A stretch of DNA of 64,000 bases from sequence record NC_042128.1, one strand, 5' to 3'. The notes under the pieces were generated by a model. It did no database searches. It had not been told where the DNA came from and was given only the letters and a program-made list of their open reading frames with translations. Shown here in pieces: positions 26,617 to 37,147 of this stretch. The stretch is from Escherichia phage RCS47. The translations under genes and the position numbers were made by a program. Position 1 is the first letter of the stretch, and every line of letters begins with the position of its first letter.

Positions 26617-27800
26617 CAGACCTGATCTGACAGTTACCGGTTATTTATACAGGTATCTGTCAGATTACATCTGGCTTAAATTTTTCTCGGCCCAGATGCG
26701 TTTTCCATCAAGTAACGTTTCCATTGGCGTACGCCCACAGCACATTTTTCCCTGATGAGTTCGCTCATTATTGTAATGCCACAACCACTTGTCCAGATCC
26801 ATTTGCAGGCTTTCCAGGTTTGTATATAGCTTTTTACGGAACGTAACCTGATAAAACTCCTGCAAAATGGTCTTATGGAAGCGCTCGCAGATGCCGTTCG
26901 TCTGCGGAGACATCGCCTTCGTTTTCGTATGGTCAATGTCGTTGATAGCCAGATACAACTGATAATCATGCTGCTCAACTTTACCACAGTACTCTGTTCC
27001 CCTATCGGTCATGATTCTCAGCATCGGCAGCCCCTGAGACTCGTAGAACGGCAGTACACGATCATTGAGCAAATCAGCTGCGGTGATCGGCGTTTTACTC
27101 GTATATAGTTTGCAGTGTGCCACTTTCGAGTACGTATCCACGAACGTCTGCTGATAGATACGGCCAACACCTTTCAGGTTGCCCACGTAGAAGGTGTCCT
27201 GTGACCCCAGATACCCCGGATGTGCCGTTTCGATTTCACCGTTGGCCTCATCATCCTGGGCTTTCTTTTCTAGCGCTGCGATTTGAGCGTCAGTGAGTAC
27301 GATCCCTTCTCTGGCGACTTTTTCTTCAAGTGCTTTCAGACGTTTACGGAAGTTCTCCAGGTCGTGTCGTTGCCAGATGGAGCGTACGCCGCTGCCGGAG
27401 ATAAATACGCCTTTCTTACGCAGTTCATTACTGGTCCGGTGCTGCCCATGAGCCGGAAACTCAATTGCGTACTCAACAACTGCACGTTCAGTCGCTTCAT
27501 CGACACGGTTCTTTATGTTCGGGACTCTGCGGTTCTGATTAACCAAAGCATCAATACCGCCTTCCTCAGCCAGTTCCTGATAGCGGTAAAATGTGTCGCG
27601 TGACACCCCCATGATTTTACAGGCTTTTGATACGTTACCGAGTTCTTCGGCGAGGTTGAGCAGACCGACTTTGTGTTTGATGATGGGATTGTTAGTATGA
27701 AGCATGAGAGTTACCTCGTGTTTTGTATAAGGATTAGACACCCATATCAAAACCGGTAACTCTCAACCTTTCAAGGCTCAGTGTCAGATCAAGTCGCGAC
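26617..27800 (-). mobile_element. IS481-family insertion sequence (boundaries approximate)
   Basis: single transposase ORF flanked by imperfect inverted repeats containing TGATCTGACA and GTTACCGGTT. Confidence 0.6.
26665..27705 (-). CDS. IS481-family DDE transposase (HTH plus rve integrase core)
   Basis: 346 aa from ATG 27705 after GAGGT; C-terminal ...SPQTNGICERFHKTILQEFY... integrase-core signature. Confidence 0.7.
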   Translation of the reverse strand: MLHTNNPIIKHKVGLLNLAEELGNVSKACKIMGVSRDTFYRYQELAEEGGIDALVNQNRRVPNIKNRVDEATERAVVEYAIEFPAHGQHRTSNELRKKGVFISGSGVRSIWQRHDLENFRKRLKALEEKVAREGIVLTDAQIAALEKKAQDDEANGEIETAHPGYLGSQDTFYVGNLKGVGRIYQQTFVDTYSKVAHCKLYTSKTPITAADLLNDRVLPFYESQGLPMLRIMTDRGTEYCGKVEQHDYQLYLAINDIDHTKTKAMSPQTNGICERFHKTILQEFYQVTFRKKLYTNLESLQMDLDKWLWHYNNERTHQGKMCCGRTPMETLLDGKRIWAEKNLSQM

Positions 27801-27841: not shown

Positions 27842-28153
27842 TCAATATACGATCTGGTCTACATGATCACCAAAATCATCGTCGTCGTCGTCCTCATCGC
27901 CACCATCTACTGCTGGCCAATCAACAAACCAGCCAGCGTAAAGATGCAGCGTTCGGAGAACATCACTTGCGGGAGCATCAAGGGTGTTAACGAATCCCAT
28001 ATAGCTATTGGGATTTGCCCCAGCTATGGCTTCAGCGATCATGTCCTCGGTAATGTCACCGGAGATAATGCTTAAACGCCCGGAAACTTCTTCATTATCA
28101 TCAAATTCGATAATGGCATCTCCGCCTAATGGCGCTGCGATTTTAATCTGCAT
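27842..28153 (-). CDS. highly acidic small protein, last gene of dar operon
   Basis: 103 aa, overlaps ddrB stop; GGDEDDDDDDFGDH acidic tract. Confidence 0.5.
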   Translation of the reverse strand: MQIKIAAPLGGDAIIEFDDNEEVSGRLSIISGDITEDMIAEAIAGANPNSYMGFVNTLDAPASDVLRTLHLYAGWFVDWPAVDGGDEDDDDDDFGDHVDQIVY

Positions 28154-31130
28154 TATTTAGCTCCTTTGCCACACCTAATAACAGTTCCAGCAATCCGTCA
28201 CCATTCATCAGTGATGCGGCAGCGGCCTCTTTGTCATGATACAACTGAAGAGCCATAGAGAATACTTCCGTTGCTGACGTTTTGGAAATAGTCGGTGATT
28301 TCTGCCGAATTTTCCCTGAGTTACTCACTGAGACTGGCGGGTATACCTTCGCCATATAAATATTACTCAATCGAGATCTGAAGCACCATTCAGGCTTGCC
28401 ACGCCCACCGATATTGACGAAAGATGGCTTATCCCCTTCAACATTGGCCTTCAGGAATGACCGGGCTTTCTCTAACAAACCAGGGTTACTGTACTCAAGA
28501 TGATGACCCAGCTCGTGCCACAGTGCATTTGCATTTTCATCGTGCAAATCGACAGCAACAACACCATTAAGATTTGCATACGCCCTACCCTGGTGGTGAA
28601 CTACCTTTGATAAGGTCGATATTTTCCCGCCGGTCAGGCGATAAATATCAGCAAGTTCCTTGCGCAGGTCTATCCCACCATTCTGTCCAGCGCGGGCTTC
28701 TTCCACTTCTTCCGTGATAAAAGAGTCGGCCCACTCAAGAGCTTTTTCTTCTGATACAGATGAGTTGGCGATCGCACTGTTCATGGCAGATAACACTTTC
28801 TCGTAGACCGAATCCATACTTCGCTGATTCATTTGCCAGCGTGTCTGCGGGTTATATGAGAATCGCTTAAGTAGTTGGTCAAGCTGCTCAAGTTCTTCTT
28901 CACTGACATACTTTTTAGCCTCACCAATAATGCCAGGGAGAATATTGCCGTTAGGATTAAACGCTCGCGAAAGGAAGAGTTTCAGCGCCCCCATGCCCTC
29001 CGATGCTTCAATATCACCAATAACCCGGTTAACAATGGCCGCACTCTTCGGATTAGCATCCGCCAACGCTCTGGCTACGATTTGCAGGGACGATACGACC
29101 TCACGCTGCATATCAGTCCTGATCTCATCAATAAACTCTGGCGTTATGCCGTGCTCTTTAAGGATATCCCGGCCTTCCGCCGTTACCCCATCGATATCAC
29201 CGACATGTTTATTAACACGACTTTGCAATGCCTTAAATGCCTTCAGAATTCCACGGGAATCATCCGCTTTACTAACGGCCTTCCTGAATGCTGGCAAGAA
29301 GTCTGAGTTAACCTCATTTTGTTGATCGGCCCACTGAATGGAGGCTTCTTTCATCTCGTCCAGAGTCAGATCACCCAACGCGGTATGGTCTGTGAATATG
29401 AGCGACAACCTCTGAACCATTTCTGCCAATGGTGATGCCGAATGCGCCGCGCTAAGGAATGCTTTCACCCTGGTTGGGCGAATGGAAAACCAGTCAATAG
29501 CTGGTGGCATATCTCCGTTTTGTATCGCCTGCGCTATCTCATCAAAGCCATCGCGCCCAAGGGAAGATGCGTGATTTAACAATCCGCGAAGTAACGAATT
29601 GCTGATACCGAATAATCGGCACCATTTATTCACGTCGGCAACAGGCATTCGAACAAAATGCGCAAGCACTTGTACAAGCTGTTCATCCTGGGGATCTGTG
29701 CGGGAAAGCAGCCTGATCAGATGAATAATGTCTTTGATGCCGGATGCCCGATGTAATAGCAAACTGGTATACGGAGCAACACCGTTGTAACTACCGCCGG
29801 AAACGGACTCGAAAAGACCGCCGGATATCCCTTGCATGCCTTCGTTTTCCAGTTCCTGAGACACCTGGCGAAGGATATCCTGTAACGACACATCGCCGCC
29901 GCCAAACATATCCCCGAGCGCCTGGCCCTGGTGCTGTAACTCATCATTGATACGTTGCGCCATCAACTTAAAGGCGGTGGCCATACGCTTCGCGCTACGG
30001 TTATTCGCGACGATGAACAACGCGAGTGCTTTCACTTCCGGGGCCGTTTCGCTGAACATATCCCCCTGAGCAATAACATCGGTAATATGCTGGCCTAACT
30101 CCTTCGATTGCCTTACCAGGTCTACCGCATCTTTCAATGCCGCCAGCGCCTTTTTATCGAGGCTATCCGCTGTCTCAATGCCATCAACAATAGTTGTCAC
30201 AGCCTGCTTGTGCGCTTCTCCTGACAAAGCCTGCATCTGGACAAAATCATTGGCTGCCGCATTAAGCGCCGTCAGAACATTACGCATATCCGGATCAGGT
30301 TCTTCTGCAACCATCCTTACCAGGCGCGCATCCTTATATGCCTTGGCAAAGATCGCGTTTTGTATACGGTCTACAAGTTGCCGTGTTGGTCGCCCATCTT
30401 CAGTTACAAGGCCAGCCGCCTGTGTGGCACCAACTTGCGTCATAAATCCGCGAATAAACGTGTCATTACTGCGGCTAAGCAGATCTCCGCTTTCTGACGG
30501 GTTAAAAAGCGCCATCATCGCCGGTGTTATGCTGTCGGCATCAACAAAAGCCTTTTCACTGGCTGCCATTTCCTGAAGATCAGAAATATTTGAGTCCTTG
30601 GCAAACTGAACGCGGTCAACCTTAGTTAACCGGCGGCGCACCAGTACCGGAGCCGTCATTGATTCAACCTTTTCAGGTCGTATGCCGAATTCGGTCGCAT
30701 GATCAATCAGGTACTCACGATACCGATCCGCATTGCCGTCCTGATAGGCTTTAATGATCCCCATGGTCCGTCCATTACCTGACTCAACGGCATTGTCCTC
30801 ACCAATTATCGGCGCGCCATGGCTGGATAGACCGGAATCGGTAAGCTGAGCAGGCCGCAAATCCTTGGATATCTGGTTAACCTGAAGAAGGCTGGATGCG
30901 CGGGTCCGGTCGCGCGGTTGAAGTTCCTGGGGATAGTCAGGATTAATTTTCCCATCCAGAGTATTGGATACCAAAAGAGCTGAGGCATCGACGATATCAA
31001 ACGCTGTTTTTACCTCGTCTCCCTTCGCTGTCACCACATACGAAACCCGCCCATAATCGGGCAGGTTCTTTAGCAGCTCGATCAGCGTTTCTATGCTGGT
31101 GGCCATTACCACCTGATCGCTTAAGCTCAT
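28143..31130 (-). CDS. DdrB-like antirestriction accessory protein
   Basis: 995-aa ORF with ATG start; position downstream of darA/ddrA as in P1. Confidence 0.55.
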   Translation of the reverse strand: MSLSDQVVMATSIETLIELLKNLPDYGRVSYVVTAKGDEVKTAFDIVDASALLVSNTLDGKINPDYPQELQPRDRTRASSLLQVNQISKDLRPAQLTDSGLSSHGAPIIGEDNAVESGNGRTMGIIKAYQDGNADRYREYLIDHATEFGIRPEKVESMTAPVLVRRRLTKVDRVQFAKDSNISDLQEMAASEKAFVDADSITPAMMALFNPSESGDLLSRSNDTFIRGFMTQVGATQAAGLVTEDGRPTRQLVDRIQNAIFAKAYKDARLVRMVAEEPDPDMRNVLTALNAAANDFVQMQALSGEAHKQAVTTIVDGIETADSLDKKALAALKDAVDLVRQSKELGQHITDVIAQGDMFSETAPEVKALALFIVANNRSAKRMATAFKLMAQRINDELQHQGQALGDMFGGGDVSLQDILRQVSQELENEGMQGISGGLFESVSGGSYNGVAPYTSLLLHRASGIKDIIHLIRLLSRTDPQDEQLVQVLAHFVRMPVADVNKWCRLFGISNSLLRGLLNHASSLGRDGFDEIAQAIQNGDMPPAIDWFSIRPTRVKAFLSAAHSASPLAEMVQRLSLIFTDHTALGDLTLDEMKEASIQWADQQNEVNSDFLPAFRKAVSKADDSRGILKAFKALQSRVNKHVGDIDGVTAEGRDILKEHGITPEFIDEIRTDMQREVVSSLQIVARALADANPKSAAIVNRVIGDIEASEGMGALKLFLSRAFNPNGNILPGIIGEAKKYVSEEELEQLDQLLKRFSYNPQTRWQMNQRSMDSVYEKVLSAMNSAIANSSVSEEKALEWADSFITEEVEEARAGQNGGIDLRKELADIYRLTGGKISTLSKVVHHQGRAYANLNGVVAVDLHDENANALWHELGHHLEYSNPGLLEKARSFLKANVEGDKPSFVNIGGRGKPEWCFRSRLSNIYMAKVYPPVSVSNSGKIRQKSPTISKTSATEVFSMALQLYHDKEAAAASLMNGDGLLELLLGVAKELNNAD

Positions 31131-31139
31131 CCCTGTTAC

Positions 31140-32477
31140 GCCTTATCCAATGTGCCGCCCCCTACGCTCCTCATAGTGGGGATATAAGGCACAGTTTTCC
31201 TCCCGGCTATTTTTGCTTAAAATAGTGACATGAAACAACAGGTGTCATTCAAATTCCGGTTAAAACCAGATGGTCAACAGGAGCGTCAAATGAGGCGCTT
31301 TGCCGGAGCTTGTCGTTTCGTTTTCAACCGTGCTCTGGCGCTTCAGAATGAGAATCATGAGGCCGGTAAAAAATACATCCCTTACACGAAAATGGCTTCC
31401 TGGTTGGTTGAGTGGAAAAAAGACACTGAAACCGAATGGCTTAAAGATTCTCCCTCACAGCCATTGCAACAGTCACTGAAAGACCTTGAGCGGGCTTACA
31501 AAAACTTCTTCCAGAATCGGGCAGCTTTTCCCCGATTCAAAAAGCGGGGACAGAATGATGCATTCCGCTACCCGCAGGGTGTTAAGCTCGATCAGGAAAA
31601 CAGCCGTATTTTTCTGCCGAAACTTGGCTGGATGCGCTACCGGAATAGCCGTCAGGTCACGGGTATTGTGAAAAATGTTACTGTCAGCCAGTCCTGCGGT
31701 AAGTGGTACATCAGTATTCAGACAGAAAGAGAGGTATCCACTCCTGTTCACCCTTCAGCATCAATGGTCGGACTGGATGCTGGCGTGGCTAAACTCGCCA
31801 CGCTGTCAGATGGCACAGTCTTTGAACCTGTAAATAGTTTTCAGAAAAACCAGAAGAAGCTGGCGAGACTTCAGCGACAGTTAAGCCGCAAGGTCAAATT
31901 CAGCAACAACTGGCAGAAGCAGAAACGCAAAATACAGCGACTGCATTCCCGTATCGCAAATATCCGCAGGGACTACCTTCACAAAGTCACAACGACCGTC
32001 AGCAAAAACCACGCAATGATTGTCATTGAGGATTTGAAGGTTAAATACATGTCAAAGTCAGCGGCGGGAACGATAAGTCATCCGGGTCGCAATGTCCGGG
32101 CAAAATCAGGTTTAAACCGTTCGATACTGGATCAGGGCTGGTATGAAATGCGCCGCCAGCTTGAGTACAAGCAGCTCTGGCGTGGCGGTCAGGTGCTTGC
32201 TGTTCCGCCAGCGTACACAAGCCAGCGTTGCGCGTGCTGTGGTCATACAGCGAAAGAAAATCGCCTGTCACAAAGTAAATTCAGATGCCAGGTATGTGGA
32301 TATACAGCGAACGCCGATGTAAACGGCGCTCGTAACATTTTAGCGGCGGGGCACGCCGTACTTGCCTGTGGAGGGATGGTGCAGTCAGGCCGCCCGTTGA
32401 AGCAGGAACCCACCGAAATGATTCAGGCGACAGCCTGAACGTAGCAGGAATCCACGCCCTTCGGGGCGTGGAGGATG
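31140..32477 (+). mobile_element. TnpB-only IS200/IS605-family element (boundaries approximate)
   Basis: tnpB ORF plus 3' hairpin CCACGCCC-TTCG-GGGCGTGG at 32452-32471; fills the ddrA-ddrB junction. Confidence 0.6.
31230..32438 (+). CDS. tnpB: TnpB RNA-guided endonuclease family protein
   Basis: 402 aa; [36 protein letters not shown]..., RuvC-like motifs and CxxC...CxxC zinc finger. Confidence 0.85.
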
Positions 32478-32843
32478 TCACGCTGCCTCTTTAATGTTGG
32501 CGGCTATCCATGCCGCCGTGTGCTGTTTAACCTGGTCCAGGTCGATGTATGTGCCAACATATTGACTCAAGTCCTGTAACGTACCGATAAATGCATCAGT
32601 GCTCTGATCGACGAATTTATCAGCCAGGAAATCAGCAACCAGTTTTGGCACACCATCATGTACCGAAGGTTGTTTTTCCTCGCCACTACTGCCGCCGGAC
32701 GCGCCGTACCCCATCTGTTGCATGATCTGGTCAATTTCATCGCTGATATCCAGCAACTCCATGCCACTCGCGGTAGCCGCTTTGGACATCAGAGCATCCA
32801 ACTTATCGCTGAGGTCCATTAACTCAATAGCTGATAGTGTCAT
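32478..32843 (-). CDS. DdrA-like protein
   Basis: 121 aa, immediately downstream of darA. Confidence 0.5.
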   Translation of the reverse strand: MTLSAIELMDLSDKLDALMSKAATASGMELLDISDEIDQIMQQMGYGASGGSSGEEKQPSVHDGVPKLVADFLADKFVDQSTDAFIGTLQDLSQYVGTYIDLDQVKQHTAAWIAANIKEAA

Positions 32844-34759
32844 GCCGCTACCCCCGCTTTCTGGATTGCTACCAGCAGATCAGCCAGGTGGCGAGCAGCG
32901 CCATTAACCAGCTCTTCGTTTTCCTCAAAACGTCCGGCAGCCTGAAGGGCTGCAATCGCTTCCCGGACATTGCCCCGGGCGTTACGGATCTCCGCCATGT
33001 CAGTGCTTTGCATATCCATCACGTTATTGAGATATTCAATGGCTTTATTAGCCTCTGCATCTGCTTCGCTAACCGTTTCATCAGGCTGTGCCGGGGCCGG
33101 TTCTGGCTGAGTAATCTCACCGACTTCGGCCTGCAATGCATTGATCATGCTCTGCACCATTTTCTCGGTGCCAGCGCCCCCCGGAAACGCAATATTGGGG
33201 AAAGTTTTTTGAAACTGAGTCTTCAGCATTACTCGGAACTCGTCTGGTGAGCTGGTGGCCAGCTCCAGAGCTTTTTGTGCATATTTGCCAAACGGACCAT
33301 TAGTAAGTGTCTTCGCCAGGAAGTCGAAAGAATCCTCGCGAGGCAATAACTTCAGGTCGTACTCACTCATTTGCTGATCAGAAAGCGGGGTATCGTAAGT
33401 AGCAATGCCGTAGCGTGCATATTCATAATACGGGTCACCTTCATCAGGGCGCGGCAGAATTGCTTTGTTACCTTCAGGTATTGCGCCAGGGGCCGCCGGA
33501 CGCATTTGCAGGGCATATCGATATGCACCTACAGAGACTTCTGGTTCAGGCGAAGAGCTACCGGTATCCTCCGCTGGTTCAGGTTCGACGTTTTCCGGTT
33601 TATGTTCTTCTGGTTGGACCAGGTATTCCGATACATTACCCGCTTTATAGGCTTTAAACAGCTTGCCGATCGCATCTGCCATGTCCACACCCTGTATGGA
33701 TTTAGCCTTGATCATGTACACGCTGCCATCCGAATCGGTTAACTGGATATACCCTTCACCGTCCTCAATGAATTGCTTCATTGATGCACCATTACTGAGC
33801 GTCACTTCCCCGTTCATATGCATACGATTTTTGATACTTGCAAGGCGATCCGTCATCGCGCGAGAGTGTCCACCAGTCATCCCCGCAGGAGCAATGGTTT
33901 CGCGCCCACCAGTGCGATTGAGCTGATCAATCTCCGTCTGCAAACGCTCATTCTCTTCATAAAGAGAATCCGCTTCCGATGCAACAGCGTTAATTTTCTG
34001 CTCCAGATCTGCCTTCTGCCCTTCTACCGCTGCCACCTGATCCGCGAGGTCGCTCATGGCATCCTCTTTCTGGTCACTGTCAGCCTGTAGTTGGGTTATT
34101 TCATCAACAAGGGCTTTTTTCTTCTTCTGCGCACGCTGGAATTTTGCCGAGTTTTTCTCTGCAAGGTTGGCAAGTTTCATGGTGACCTGCGCCAGCGTCA
34201 TATCACGTCCACTCATCGGAGCAACGGTGTGAGTAACGTCTTTTTTATTCAGTAAGAACTGGAAAGCAACCAGCGTATCGCTATTGGTGATCCGGTTTTC
34301 CGCTGTCGGGCTATGAAACAGAATGCTGATAGTCTGACCATCACTGAGCGGAATAATGGCAGGCAGGACTGGCAGCCCGTTAACGTTACGTGCCCGGCCA
34401 ATTTCAGCGCCGCCGATCGCGCGCGCGCCGCTCTGGGCCACATCCCCCGTTTTATCACTCCCCGCAGAGATTCCGGTACCATTCAGCTTCTGGTTCAATG
34501 CCCGGACAAATGCCTGCATGGTCCGGTGTAACTGCAAACGAGTAGAACTAATCGCCTCCAGTAAATCCGTAGCACACCAGTGGATCGGCGTGTCATAGAA
34601 GAACGTAGCCTCGATTTCCTCCAGGGTGTTGGATTCCGTCATCAGATAGCGGCCCTCACCGGCCATTAATGCGCGATATTCATCATCAGTCACTGGCGGG
34701 GGAAGCACGTCAAGCCCAGGTTTGATCGTCACCCCTTTATTGATATTGAACTGTTCCAT
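32840..34759 (-). CDS. darA: DarA-like antirestriction / capsid internal protein
   Basis: 639 aa, size and position match P1 DarA; coiled-coil middle region. Confidence 0.6.
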   Translation of the reverse strand: MEQFNINKGVTIKPGLDVLPPPVTDDEYRALMAGEGRYLMTESNTLEEIEATFFYDTPIHWCATDLLEAISSTRLQLHRTMQAFVRALNQKLNGTGISAGSDKTGDVAQSGARAIGGAEIGRARNVNGLPVLPAIIPLSDGQTISILFHSPTAENRITNSDTLVAFQFLLNKKDVTHTVAPMSGRDMTLAQVTMKLANLAEKNSAKFQRAQKKKKALVDEITQLQADSDQKEDAMSDLADQVAAVEGQKADLEQKINAVASEADSLYEENERLQTEIDQLNRTGGRETIAPAGMTGGHSRAMTDRLASIKNRMHMNGEVTLSNGASMKQFIEDGEGYIQLTDSDGSVYMIKAKSIQGVDMADAIGKLFKAYKAGNVSEYLVQPEEHKPENVEPEPAEDTGSSSPEPEVSVGAYRYALQMRPAAPGAIPEGNKAILPRPDEGDPYYEYARYGIATYDTPLSDQQMSEYDLKLLPREDSFDFLAKTLTNGPFGKYAQKALELATSSPDEFRVMLKTQFQKTFPNIAFPGGAGTEKMVQSMINALQAEVGEITQPEPAPAQPDETVSEADAEANKAIEYLNNVMDMQSTDMAEIRNARGNVREAIAALQAAGRFEENEELVNGAARHLADLLVAIQKAGVAA

Positions 34760-34760
34760 G

Positions 34761-35372
34761 TTAATTTCCTGCTTTCAGTTGCTTAAGACGGCGTTTGAGT
34801 TCGCCATTTCGGGCCTTTTCGTTATTGAGTCGGCCTGTCTCCTTATCCAGCTTCGCCCGCAAATCAGTGATCTGCTGTTGATTGAAAGACACCGAGTTCT
34901 GCGCTGATTTATAAGCGGCAACCACCTGAGCATTCCGCTGTTTTGCCTCTTGCAGGCGCTGAAAGTTGGATTTTACTGCCGGTTTCTTGTCTACCGGATT
35001 GGCAACACGTTTCGCTTTGGCGATCAGTGATTTCTGGAATTTTGCGGAGTTTTTGCGGGCCGCTTGCCCCATGACGGTACCAAGCGTCTTGATATCCGGC
35101 GACTGAGCGTTAGGAATAGCTTTTCCATTCAGCCTCACAGACGATATATCGCCAGTATCGTTTACCTGTATGGCAAGAATTTGTCCGTCGTTAAGAACCA
35201 GCTTTGCGGTTTTAACTTTAACGCCATCTTTCGTTGTTGCGCGGTTGCTGGAGTCAACCTCAATTACCGTAACACCGGTTTTATTGATCGCCGCGATAAG
35301 GGATTTCAGCCCCTTTTCATTAACCTGGTCAAAATCGACCGTTGCATACTTATTTCTCGTCATCTGACACAT
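34761..35372 (-). CDS. Hdf-like protein
   Basis: 203 aa immediately upstream of darA. Confidence 0.45.
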   Translation of the reverse strand: MCQMTRNKYATVDFDQVNEKGLKSLIAAINKTGVTVIEVDSSNRATTKDGVKVKTAKLVLNDGQILAIQVNDTGDISSVRLNGKAIPNAQSPDIKTLGTVMGQAARKNSAKFQKSLIAKAKRVANPVDKKPAVKSNFQRLQEAKQRNAQVVAAYKSAQNSVSFNQQQITDLRAKLDKETGRLNNEKARNGELKRRLKQLKAGN

Positions 35373-36585: not shown

Positions 36586-37147
36586 ATGCTGATCGGCTAT
36601 GTACGCGTATCAACAAATGAACAAAACACTGCTTTGCAACGAAATGCCCTTGAAAGCGCAGGATGTGAGCTAATTTTTGAGGATAAGGCGAGCGGCAAAC
36701 AGACTGAACGCCCTGGGCTAAAAAAGGTTTTGCGTATGCTTTCCAGAGGTGACACCCTGGTCGTATGGAAGTTAGATCGTCTTGGGCGCAGCATGCGTCA
36801 CTTGGTTGTGCTGGTGGAAGAGCTGCGTGACAGAGGAATTAATTTCCGGAGTCTCACTGACTCTATCGACACCAGTACACCAATGGGGCGCTTTTTCTTT
36901 CACGTAATGGGGGCGCTGGCAGAAATGGAACGTGAGCTTATCGTTGAACGTACACGCGCTGGACGTGATGCAGCTCGCGCAGAAGGTCGTAATAGGTGGG
37001 CGTCGGCCTAAATACCAAGAAGAAACATGGCAGCAAATGCGGCGATTGCTGGAGAATGGCATCCCCCGTAAGCAGGTTGCAATCATCTATGATGTGGCTG
37101 TTTCCACGCTTTATAAGAAGTTTCCGGCGTCGTCATTTCAATCCTAA
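36586..37147 (+). pseudogene. cin: cin DNA invertase with +1 frameshift
   Basis: N-terminal 135 aa of a serine invertase then frame breaks at 36991; C-terminal ...GGRRPKYQEETW...IYDVAVSTLYKK... continues in the +1 frame to 37147. Confidence 0.8.

Follow-up and report, generated by a model that had tools for sequence, protein, structure and literature searches.

A tnpA-less IS609 derivative with probably defunct ends at the ddrA–ddrB junction of the P1-like phage-plasmid RCS47

In the IS200/IS605 family of insertion sequences (IS), tnpA is dispensable in non-autonomous or IS1341-type members, and a TnpB nuclease takes its guide from the DNA next to the right end. The E. coli member IS609, with TTAT/TCAA cleavage sites and a length of ∼1340 bp, has been found in the P1-like plasmids pJIE250-3 and pSvP1 and was placed there in the antirestriction/head-processing region (Venturini et al. 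2019), and a sense-overlapping transcript has been described at the 3' end of tnpB in E. coli K-12 (Gomes-Filho et al. 2015). Here we describe an element of this type in Escherichia phage RCS47 (NC_042128.1; the 64,000-nt stretch that we analysed is referred to as the window), a P1-like (Punavirus) phage-plasmid in which tnpB lies between the antirestriction genes ddrA and ddrB. Based on its sequence, we classify the element as a non-autonomous, tnpA-less derivative of IS609. The insertion is as such an ordinary IS609-type element that is already catalogued: the record of Salmonella phage SJ46 labels it insQ/IS605 transposase, and RefSeq labels it RNA-guided endonuclease InsQ/TnpB. Our literature searches on TnpB with phage-plasmids, insQ and ddrA/ddrB yielded no functional study of the insertion and no paper on its tnpA-less state, altered ends or guide target, and it goes unmentioned in the SJ46 paper and in a survey of 77 P1-like genomes. 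What we add are (i) the exact ends (31147–32481), the TTAT target and a rebuilt ddrA stop codon, and (ii) the finding that the transposition ends seem to be defunct while the nuclease gene and the guide-RNA scaffold are intact.

The limits of the insert are evident from comparison with P1-like genomes that lack it. In P1, P7 and Ro157c2YLVW the junction runs uninterrupted as ...GCCTTAT/GCTGCC... (in full, ...CAT CC(G/C)TGTTACGCC TTAT/GCTGCCTCTTTAATG..., the last slash marking the insertion point), while the window reads ...GCCTTAT(CCAATG...GTCAC)GCTGCC..., that is, ...GCCTTAT, then the insert CCAATGTGCC...GGAGGATGTCAC, then GCTGCC.... The ddrA–ddrB span accordingly differs by 1335 bp between the window and P1. 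Neither a target-site duplication nor terminal inverted repeats are present when TTAT–element–GCTGCC is compared with TTATGCTGCC of P1 and P7, so that the insert exhibits the combination expected of IS200/IS605 elements, i.e., a fixed tetranucleotide at its 5' side without duplication and without terminal inverted repeats. TTAT likewise precedes the left end at 14 of the 17 distinct family insertion sites with a readable tetranucleotide, the remaining three having TTAC. A first-pass annotation of the window had proposed a TnpB-only IS200/IS605-type insertion, and had suggested comparison with element-free genomes to define its ends and target. That comparison bears out the insertion, and the 402-residue TnpB reading frame on the plus strand between minus-strand ddrA and ddrB, as well as the positions then given for the ddrB start and the ddrA stop, agree with ours. 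The proposed ends and target do not stand: the element had been delimited to 31131–32477 and its left end placed beside a TTAC at 31136–31139. We reject the latter as target, since this TTAC is unchanged in the empty sites of P1 and P7 and is native P1 intergenic DNA; the left end adjoins TTAT instead.

The insertion point is located inside the last codon of ddrA. In P1, the target TTAT represents the complement of the ddrA stop codon plus one base, and the gene ends with GCA GCA TAA; in the window it ends with GCA GCG TGA, and both versions encode ...KEAA followed by the stop. The final four bases of the element, read on the minus strand, provide the G (third base of the last Ala codon) and the TGA. 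Rather than merely abutting ddrA, as had been thought, the element thus contains the stop codon of this gene together with the final base of the codon before it, and both length and C-terminus of DdrA are unchanged. On the other side, ddrB retains its ATG and the native 16 nt ahead of it, in which the ribosome-binding region lies, although the two genes, 12 nt apart without the insert, are now separated by an additional 1335 bp. The insertion is tolerated, we suggest, because the last bases of the element rebuild the Ala codon and stop codon of ddrA, and because neither the start nor the ribosome-binding region of ddrB has been lost. The first-pass annotation overlooked that the element supplies the ddrA stop, that IS609 is its parent, and that the literature already contains the insertion.

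This parentage is indicated by ∼95% nucleotide identity of window positions 31246–32480 to sequence found in 5015 of the 5426 complete genomes of E. coli. The corresponding chromosomal loci are IS609 copies in which a divergent tnpA precedes tnpB (insQ); their right end is that of the window element, and TTAT stands immediately before their left end. In the window, an 83-nt left end is followed directly by the 1209-bp tnpB and a 43-nt right end, and the gene for TnpA, the Y1 HUH transposase, is absent. The first 99 nt match IS609 only loosely, in a 22–23-nt stretch at 87–91% identity. Other tnpA-less elements of this type occupy different enterobacterial plasmids and phage-plasmids. Two canonical-ended siblings may be singled out: one in the Salmonella IncFII plasmid LN890519 (L009, 2970–4303) follows immediately after psiB-psiA in an F-type leading region, and one in E. 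coli p1_000200 (L008, 2970–4304) resides inside the early region of another phage-plasmid. It seems that this small TnpB-only family favours plasmids and phage-plasmids. Fragments 96% identical to the middle of tnpB also occur in the records of filamentous phage If1 (U02303 6409–7055, annotated ORF348) and of the jumbo Aeromonas phage AP1, and may be IS609 remnants or host-DNA contamination of those records.

The left end of the window element is a variant form. The canonical TAAAA-CCCCGTCC-TTCA-GGGCGGGG, which comprises the inner hairpin and the AAAA located 5' of it, is replaced by CCCCCTACGCTCCTCATAGTGGGG, with ∼60% mismatch over 20 nt as compared with 85–95% identity across the rest of the element. 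As DNA, this left end folds at −6.9 kcal/mol (z −1.1), which is no better than shuffled sequence, compared with −18.1 kcal/mol (z −3.9) for IS609 and −11.2 kcal/mol (z −3.05) for SJ46. At two family sites with TTAC (L010 and L048), AAAG replaces AAAA 5' of the left hairpin, which parallels the rule for IS608 that the guide tetranucleotide 5' of the hairpin pairs with the cleavage site. The left end also harbours, on the minus strand and facing ddrB, a sigma-70-like site (ATGACA, 18 nt, TATTTT; 31219–31248), the −35 hexamer of which arises from substitutions (31237–31245) common to the window and SJ46 only that changed TnpB codons 3–6 as well. This site may drive ddrB independently, but sites of this kind are not enriched here over shuffled sequence.

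At the right end, the first-pass annotation had noticed an 8-bp hairpin with a TTCG loop after the tnpB stop (32452–32471), which is present as described and can be extended to 9 bp (32451–32459 with 32464–32472). It had read this hairpin as belonging to the right end and to an omega-RNA, and we indeed identify it as the right-end subterminal hairpin and as the 3' stem-loop of a predicted omega-RNA. Its DNA fold (−12.1 kcal/mol; z = −3.4) is equalled by one of 200 shuffles, its position is kept in every family member, and compensatory changes are found in helix 7. The distance from the hairpin to the element end is 10 nt for the 8-bp stem (through 32471) or 9 nt for the 9-bp stem, which is close to the right-end geometry of IS608, and the GAAT located 5' of the hairpin is intact. 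The cleavage site itself is altered: the element ends with TCAC, whereas all 14 others in our right-end alignment (A1; 13 viral-contig or plasmid relatives and one chromosomal IS609) end with TCAA. The sole further row with TCAC, L037, represents an SJ46-type copy at the same site. In SJ46 (L002 6850–6882, equivalent to window positions 32452–32471) the hairpin loop is the reverse complement (TTCG to CGAA) and the stem has one mismatch; the inverted loop is a signature of intrastrand template switching at the hairpin.

In contrast to the ends, the nuclease gene looks functional as judged from its sequence. TnpB is matched by the Pfam families OrfB_IS605 (1.5e-34), Cas12f1-like_TNB zinc ribbon (2.4e-24) and HTH_OrfB_IS605 (1.6e-16), all far above threshold, which settles the family identity that had been proposed without a search. 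The RuvC-like motifs and the zinc finger claimed at the same time are likewise present, with both the catalytic triad D183/E267/D363 and C334/C337/C353/C356 being intact. A nuclease-dead regulator of the TldR type can be excluded, since the protein is of full length (402 residues) and has lost neither the zinc finger nor any of the three catalytic residues. The ratio of nonsynonymous (dN) to synonymous (dS) substitution rates between tnpB of the window and of SJ46 is 0.19 (18 of 42 changes nonsynonymous; binomial p = 8e-7), which would indicate that the protein has been maintained after insertion.

Several lines of evidence point to an omega-RNA (reRNA, right-end RNA) that overlaps the 3' end of tnpB, and its predicted scaffold is limited by a closing helix of 32335–32340 with 32473–32478. 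Matches to HgcC, sot0042 and RAGATH-18, Rfam families of RNAs that originate at tnpB 3' ends, converge on 32311–32494, all of them sub-threshold. The HgcC and sot0042 models are matched by the window's terminal GC-rich tetraloop hairpin and the GAGGAxGUCA after it, and RAGATH-18 by the CCUGUGGAG...GAAGCAGG stem of the window. The RNA fold of 32270–32481 has z = −3.8. For the window aligned with relatives from viral contigs, the proteins of which are 68–100% identical to the window TnpB, a consensus structure of 16 sequences pairs 96% of cells compared with 37–51% in controls with slid partners; it contains five pairs with compensatory changes, mostly in the terminal hairpin, and many invariant G.U pairs, which favour RNA over DNA. 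Suppression of synonymous change over the omega-RNA is weak among close relatives, being clear only in the last ∼40 nt, and more distant relatives were therefore brought in. Taken together, these predictions support an omega-RNA here, short of proof. Given that the guide is the flank of the right end, it would consist of GCTGCCTCTTTAATGT, antisense to the last ddrA codons. This sequence occurs once in the window, and TTAT + GCTGCCTCTTTAATGT, i.e., target-adjacent motif (TAM) plus target, is absent from the window. In P1, P7 and Ro157c2YLVW, by contrast, TTAT + GCTGCCTCTTTAATGT forms the intact junction, with a perfect match over >20 nt. The TnpB–omega-RNA complex would hence recognise the unoccupied ddrA/ddrB junction of P1/P7-type replicons, which its own replicon does not contain.

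The distribution of the variant left end is of key importance for understanding the history of the element. It was found in 64 E. coli plasmids and 75 PLSDB plasmids (these being left-end query matches on P1-sized plasmids, the junctions of which were not read individually), 8 IMG/VR contigs and 5 metagenome contigs. In all junctions that were read directly (those of SJ46, the 8 IMG/VR contigs and the 5 metagenome contigs), the start of ddrB forms the flank. No match was obtained in one genome for each of 185,579 species (two exact-pattern scans, which diverged copies could escape), and across the collections searched no copy with this left end was found at any other site, while the wider family occupies many. 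The ddrA–ddrB junction is present in 464 complete E. coli records; it is uninterrupted in 390 (84%) and occupied in ∼14% (64/464). SJ46 has the same insertion site with a slightly different left end, and the element is at the same place in vB_EcoM-813R1 as well. SJ46 and the window have 23 derived substitutions in common, the terminal C included, and their tnpB genes differ by a dS of 0.098, which equals that of the adjacent ddrA (0.097). With the variant left end confined to one site in these collections, the sequences indicate a single old insertion into the ancestor of one sublineage of P1-like phage-plasmids, with vertical inheritance since, and the element is probably immobile now. In a metagenome contig (L020, SKEB01000180.1), a P1-type left junction (ddrB start, TTAT and variant left end) and tnpB are joined to the DNA which, as in L007, flanks the right end of the chromosomal IS609 beside ytfB; this contig is either a chimeric assembly or the result of recombination between plasmid and chromosomal tnpB copies.

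The evidence collected shows an IS609-derived, tnpA-less element that entered the locus by one insertion at TTAT and was vertically inherited; its ends are probably defunct and its nuclease cargo is apparently functional, and we consider this explanation as a whole likely. Insertion would have followed the single-strand peel-and-paste route of the family, with TnpA supplied in trans by a full-length IS609 and with entry 3' of the TTAT that overlaps the ddrA stop codon. End features needed by TnpA, namely the left hairpin, the AAAA guide and the terminal A of TCAA (now TCAC), would have been lost later, and with these gone the element is probably stuck. A number of observations speak against this scenario. 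The outer stem TGTGCC/GGCACA of the left end is preserved by a compensatory C.G to T.A change, and a weaker inner stem, in SJ46 a perfect 6 bp, is formed, so that the left end could be a working variant for some other TnpA. Immobility is read from sequence and distribution, while TnpB activity, TAM and omega-RNA expression are deduced by homology, and the Rfam scores of 28.1, 22.6 and 17.8 bits compare with gathering thresholds of 44.9, 50 and 88, at which no family was reached. The differences between the tnpB genes of the window and SJ46 are clustered in patches with alleles of other family copies; gene conversion from other, selected copies may thus contribute to the low dN/dS, which weakens the latter as proof of selection in situ. 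The published insertions in pJIE250-3 and pSvP1 (MN510445, MN510446) may be at exactly the site described here.

The same features of the ends bear on whether the element is still a mobile, non-autonomous IS that is excised and re-inserted by the TnpA of chromosomal IS609, with the TnpB–omega-RNA cutting the emptied donor and recombination then bringing the copy back. Nearly all of the complete E. coli genomes referred to above contain an IS609-like tnpB, some of them along with an intact tnpA; tnpA-less siblings occupy many different sites; and the right-end hairpin and GAAT are intact along with the compensated outer stem on the left. We nonetheless regard continued mobility as quite unlikely, because all copies with the variant left end share one site across five collections, the canonical left hairpin and AAAA guide are missing, the right cleavage site differs in its final base, and, in IS608, mutation of the left guide sequence abolishes assembly of the transpososome. 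In a mobile IS, cleavage by TnpB would serve to retain the copy after excision. An immobile copy carried by a phage-plasmid has no target available other than a rival replicon without the element, and it is thus tempting to ask if the nuclease has been co-opted for homing or exclusion directed at the empty ddrA/ddrB site of P1/P7-type phage-plasmids, with the rival being destroyed or converted and the purifying selection on tnpB reflecting the benefit. A homing role of TnpB is reportedly established for IS200/IS605 elements, and co-option would agree with the match of TTAT plus guide to P1, P7 and Ro157c2YLVW and its absence from the window, with the intact nuclease residues, with the low dN/dS since insertion despite ends that look defunct, and with occupancy of about one in seven E. 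coli P1-like loci. On the other hand, this role is proposed from sequence comparison, the signal of selection is confounded by gene conversion, immunity and IncY incompatibility restrict the co-residence of P1-like replicons, and most of the loci are unoccupied, so that any drive must be weak. We consider such co-option rather doubtful. The stricter proposal, that an immobilised TnpB–omega-RNA is no longer a transposon and has been kept as a homing/exclusion nuclease because its TTAT + GCTGCCTCTTTAATGT matches only the empty site of rivals, which it would cut during co-infection or co-residence so as to eliminate or convert them, appears to us a shade less probable still.

A polar effect of the insertion on downstream genes must likewise be weighed, as the first-pass annotation had suggested that the right-end hairpin might terminate transcription ahead of ddrB and the acidic gene downstream. 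More generally, either the hairpin or 1.3 kb of untranslated antisense tnpB could end late dar transcription and thus lower DdrB and Hxr: the distance from ddrA to ddrB has grown as stated above, a long untranslated stretch would make Rho-dependent termination possible, and one weak terminator-like site is located on the minus strand inside tnpB (31864–31849). However, the sequence after the hairpin is AGGATGTCAC when the plus strand is read and ATTCCTGCTA when the minus strand is read, with no T-run in either, and a consensus terminator scan yielded no site at the hairpin on either strand. An intrinsic (Rho-independent) terminator at this GC-rich hairpin is hence rejected. The three terminator-like sites found in 2 kb agree with the shuffle expectation of 2.3 ± 1.4, ddrB and hxr are of full length, and the native ribosome-binding region of ddrB is kept. 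The dN/dS of ddrB is 0.11 between the window and SJ46, both of which bear the element, which indicates that the gene is still in use in insertion-bearing lineages; strong polarity is accordingly improbable. Between the window and P1, the dN/dS of ddrB is 0.19. Virtually no weight can be given to the view that tnpB is a conserved backbone gene of P1-like phages. The reading frame is found at the same place in SJ46, vB_EcoM-813R1 and dozens of plasmids, yet the uninterrupted junctions of P1, P7 and the majority of E. coli records refute this view, and the sequence is ∼95% identical to a chromosomal IS at many unrelated sites. The first-pass annotation was thus right to prefer an insertion, and we retain the single, vertically inherited IS609-derived insertion as our explanation.

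Table 1. Positions of the inserted element, its parts and the neighbouring genes in the window (ORF, open reading frame; aa, amino acids)
Feature	Position	Strand	Basis
Whole insert, 1335 bp, tnpA-less IS609 derivative	31147-32481	+	Empty-site alignment with P1, P7, Ro157c2YLVW
TTAT, target tetranucleotide and predicted TAM	31143-31146	+	Flank of left end; family sites
Left end, variant form, 83 nt	31147-31229	+	Alignments with family members; DNA folds
tnpB (insQ-type), 402 aa	31230-32438	+	ORF listing and Pfam; between ddrA and ddrB
Predicted omega-RNA (reRNA) scaffold, ~147 nt	32335-32481	+	Rfam, fold, consensus structure; overlaps tnpB 3' end to right end
Right-end subterminal hairpin CCACGCCC-TTCG-GGGCGTGG; also predicted omega-RNA terminal stem-loop	32451-32472	+	DNA fold, conservation
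Right-end cleavage tetranucleotide TCAC	32478-32481	+	Right-end alignment with family members
Predicted 16-nt omega-RNA guide segment GCTGCCTCTTTAATGT, antisense to last ddrA codons	32482-32497	+	TnpB flank rule
hxr (downstream acidic protein gene), full length	27842-28153	-	ORF listing, P1 colinearity
ddrB, 995 aa, intact	28143-31130	-	ATG at 31128-31130
ddrA, 121 aa, intact; C-terminus rebuilt by inserted element	32478-32843	-	Stop codon at 32478-32480
darA	32840-34759	-	ORF listing, Pfam, P1 colinearity
hdf	34761-35372	-	ORF listing, P1 colinearity

The genes surrounding the element (Table 1) were named from the ORF listing, Pfam matches (DarA_N/DarA_C and ddrB-ParB aiding identification of the dar genes) and colinearity with annotated P1. 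Two further features of the neighbourhood were observed. A transposase-like ORF of 361 residues with a TTG start and the Pfam domains HTH_29, rve_3 and rve adjoins hxr on the minus strand (26665–27750); at the equivalent position P1 has isaB/IS1, whereas two hypothetical genes are found there in pSA186_4, a plasmid that is nearly identical otherwise, and this ORF is probably a second, unrelated IS insertion in the replicon. On the plus strand, a cin-type DNA invertase is broken into overlapping ORFs at 36586–37011 (141 residues) and 36932–37147 (71 residues), the latter bearing the C-terminal ...GGRRPKYQEETW... portion, which looks like a frameshift or a sequencing error near 36990–37010.

If the nuclease is active, its sole natural target would be the empty site in other P1/P7-type phages. 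Should its retention for homing or exclusion turn out to be true, the locus would provide a simple natural example, open to testing, in which an RNA-guided nuclease serves as gene drive or competition weapon between phage-plasmids. P1-like phage-plasmids spread extended-spectrum beta-lactamase and mcr genes, and caution would be advisable when P1-like vectors or transduction are used in strains bearing such plasmids.

Comparison with the closest described systems places the element as follows. It shares with IS609 (i) a 402-residue tnpB (∼95% nucleotide identity), (ii) the right-end hairpin with its 10-nt tail, and (iii) a TTAT target without target duplication, and differs from it by the lack of the divergent ∼430-bp tnpA, by replacement of the left-end inner hairpin and AAAA, by a last base C instead of A, and by changes in the first five codons. 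The tnpA-less, IS1341-like siblings of IS609 type (NZ_CP022228 p1_000200, LN890519 and CP085982) exhibit the same 83-nt/1209-bp/43-nt layout and have the conserved TTTTTGCTTAAAATAG stretch ahead of the start codon in common with the window; unlike the window, they have the canonical left hairpin, AAAA or AAAG and a terminal TCAA, and they are found at many different sites, with tnpB diverged from that of the window by a dS of 0.26–0.31. Family features in common with IS608 from Helicobacter pylori are a left cleavage tetranucleotide that is external to the IS and covaries with the four nucleotides ahead of the left hairpin, a right cleavage site located ∼10 nt 3' of the right hairpin, and a GAAT that precedes the latter; the window element, however, lacks the left guide and hairpin and has TCAC for its right cleavage site. 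Finally, TnpB of the window matches ISDra2 TnpB (PDB 8BF8) over its full length (E = 9e-52), with D191/E278/D361 of the latter aligning to the catalytic triad described above. The likeness to the ISDra2 TnpB–omega-RNA complex (PDB 8BF8/8EXA/8H1J) encompasses the aligned RuvC D/E/D and the CxxC...CxxC zinc finger and, as predicted for the window, a guide RNA whose coding sequence extends from the 3' end of the gene into the right end, while the TAM (TTGAT in ISDra2, predicted TTAT here) and a 15-residue insertion after the catalytic Glu set the window TnpB apart.

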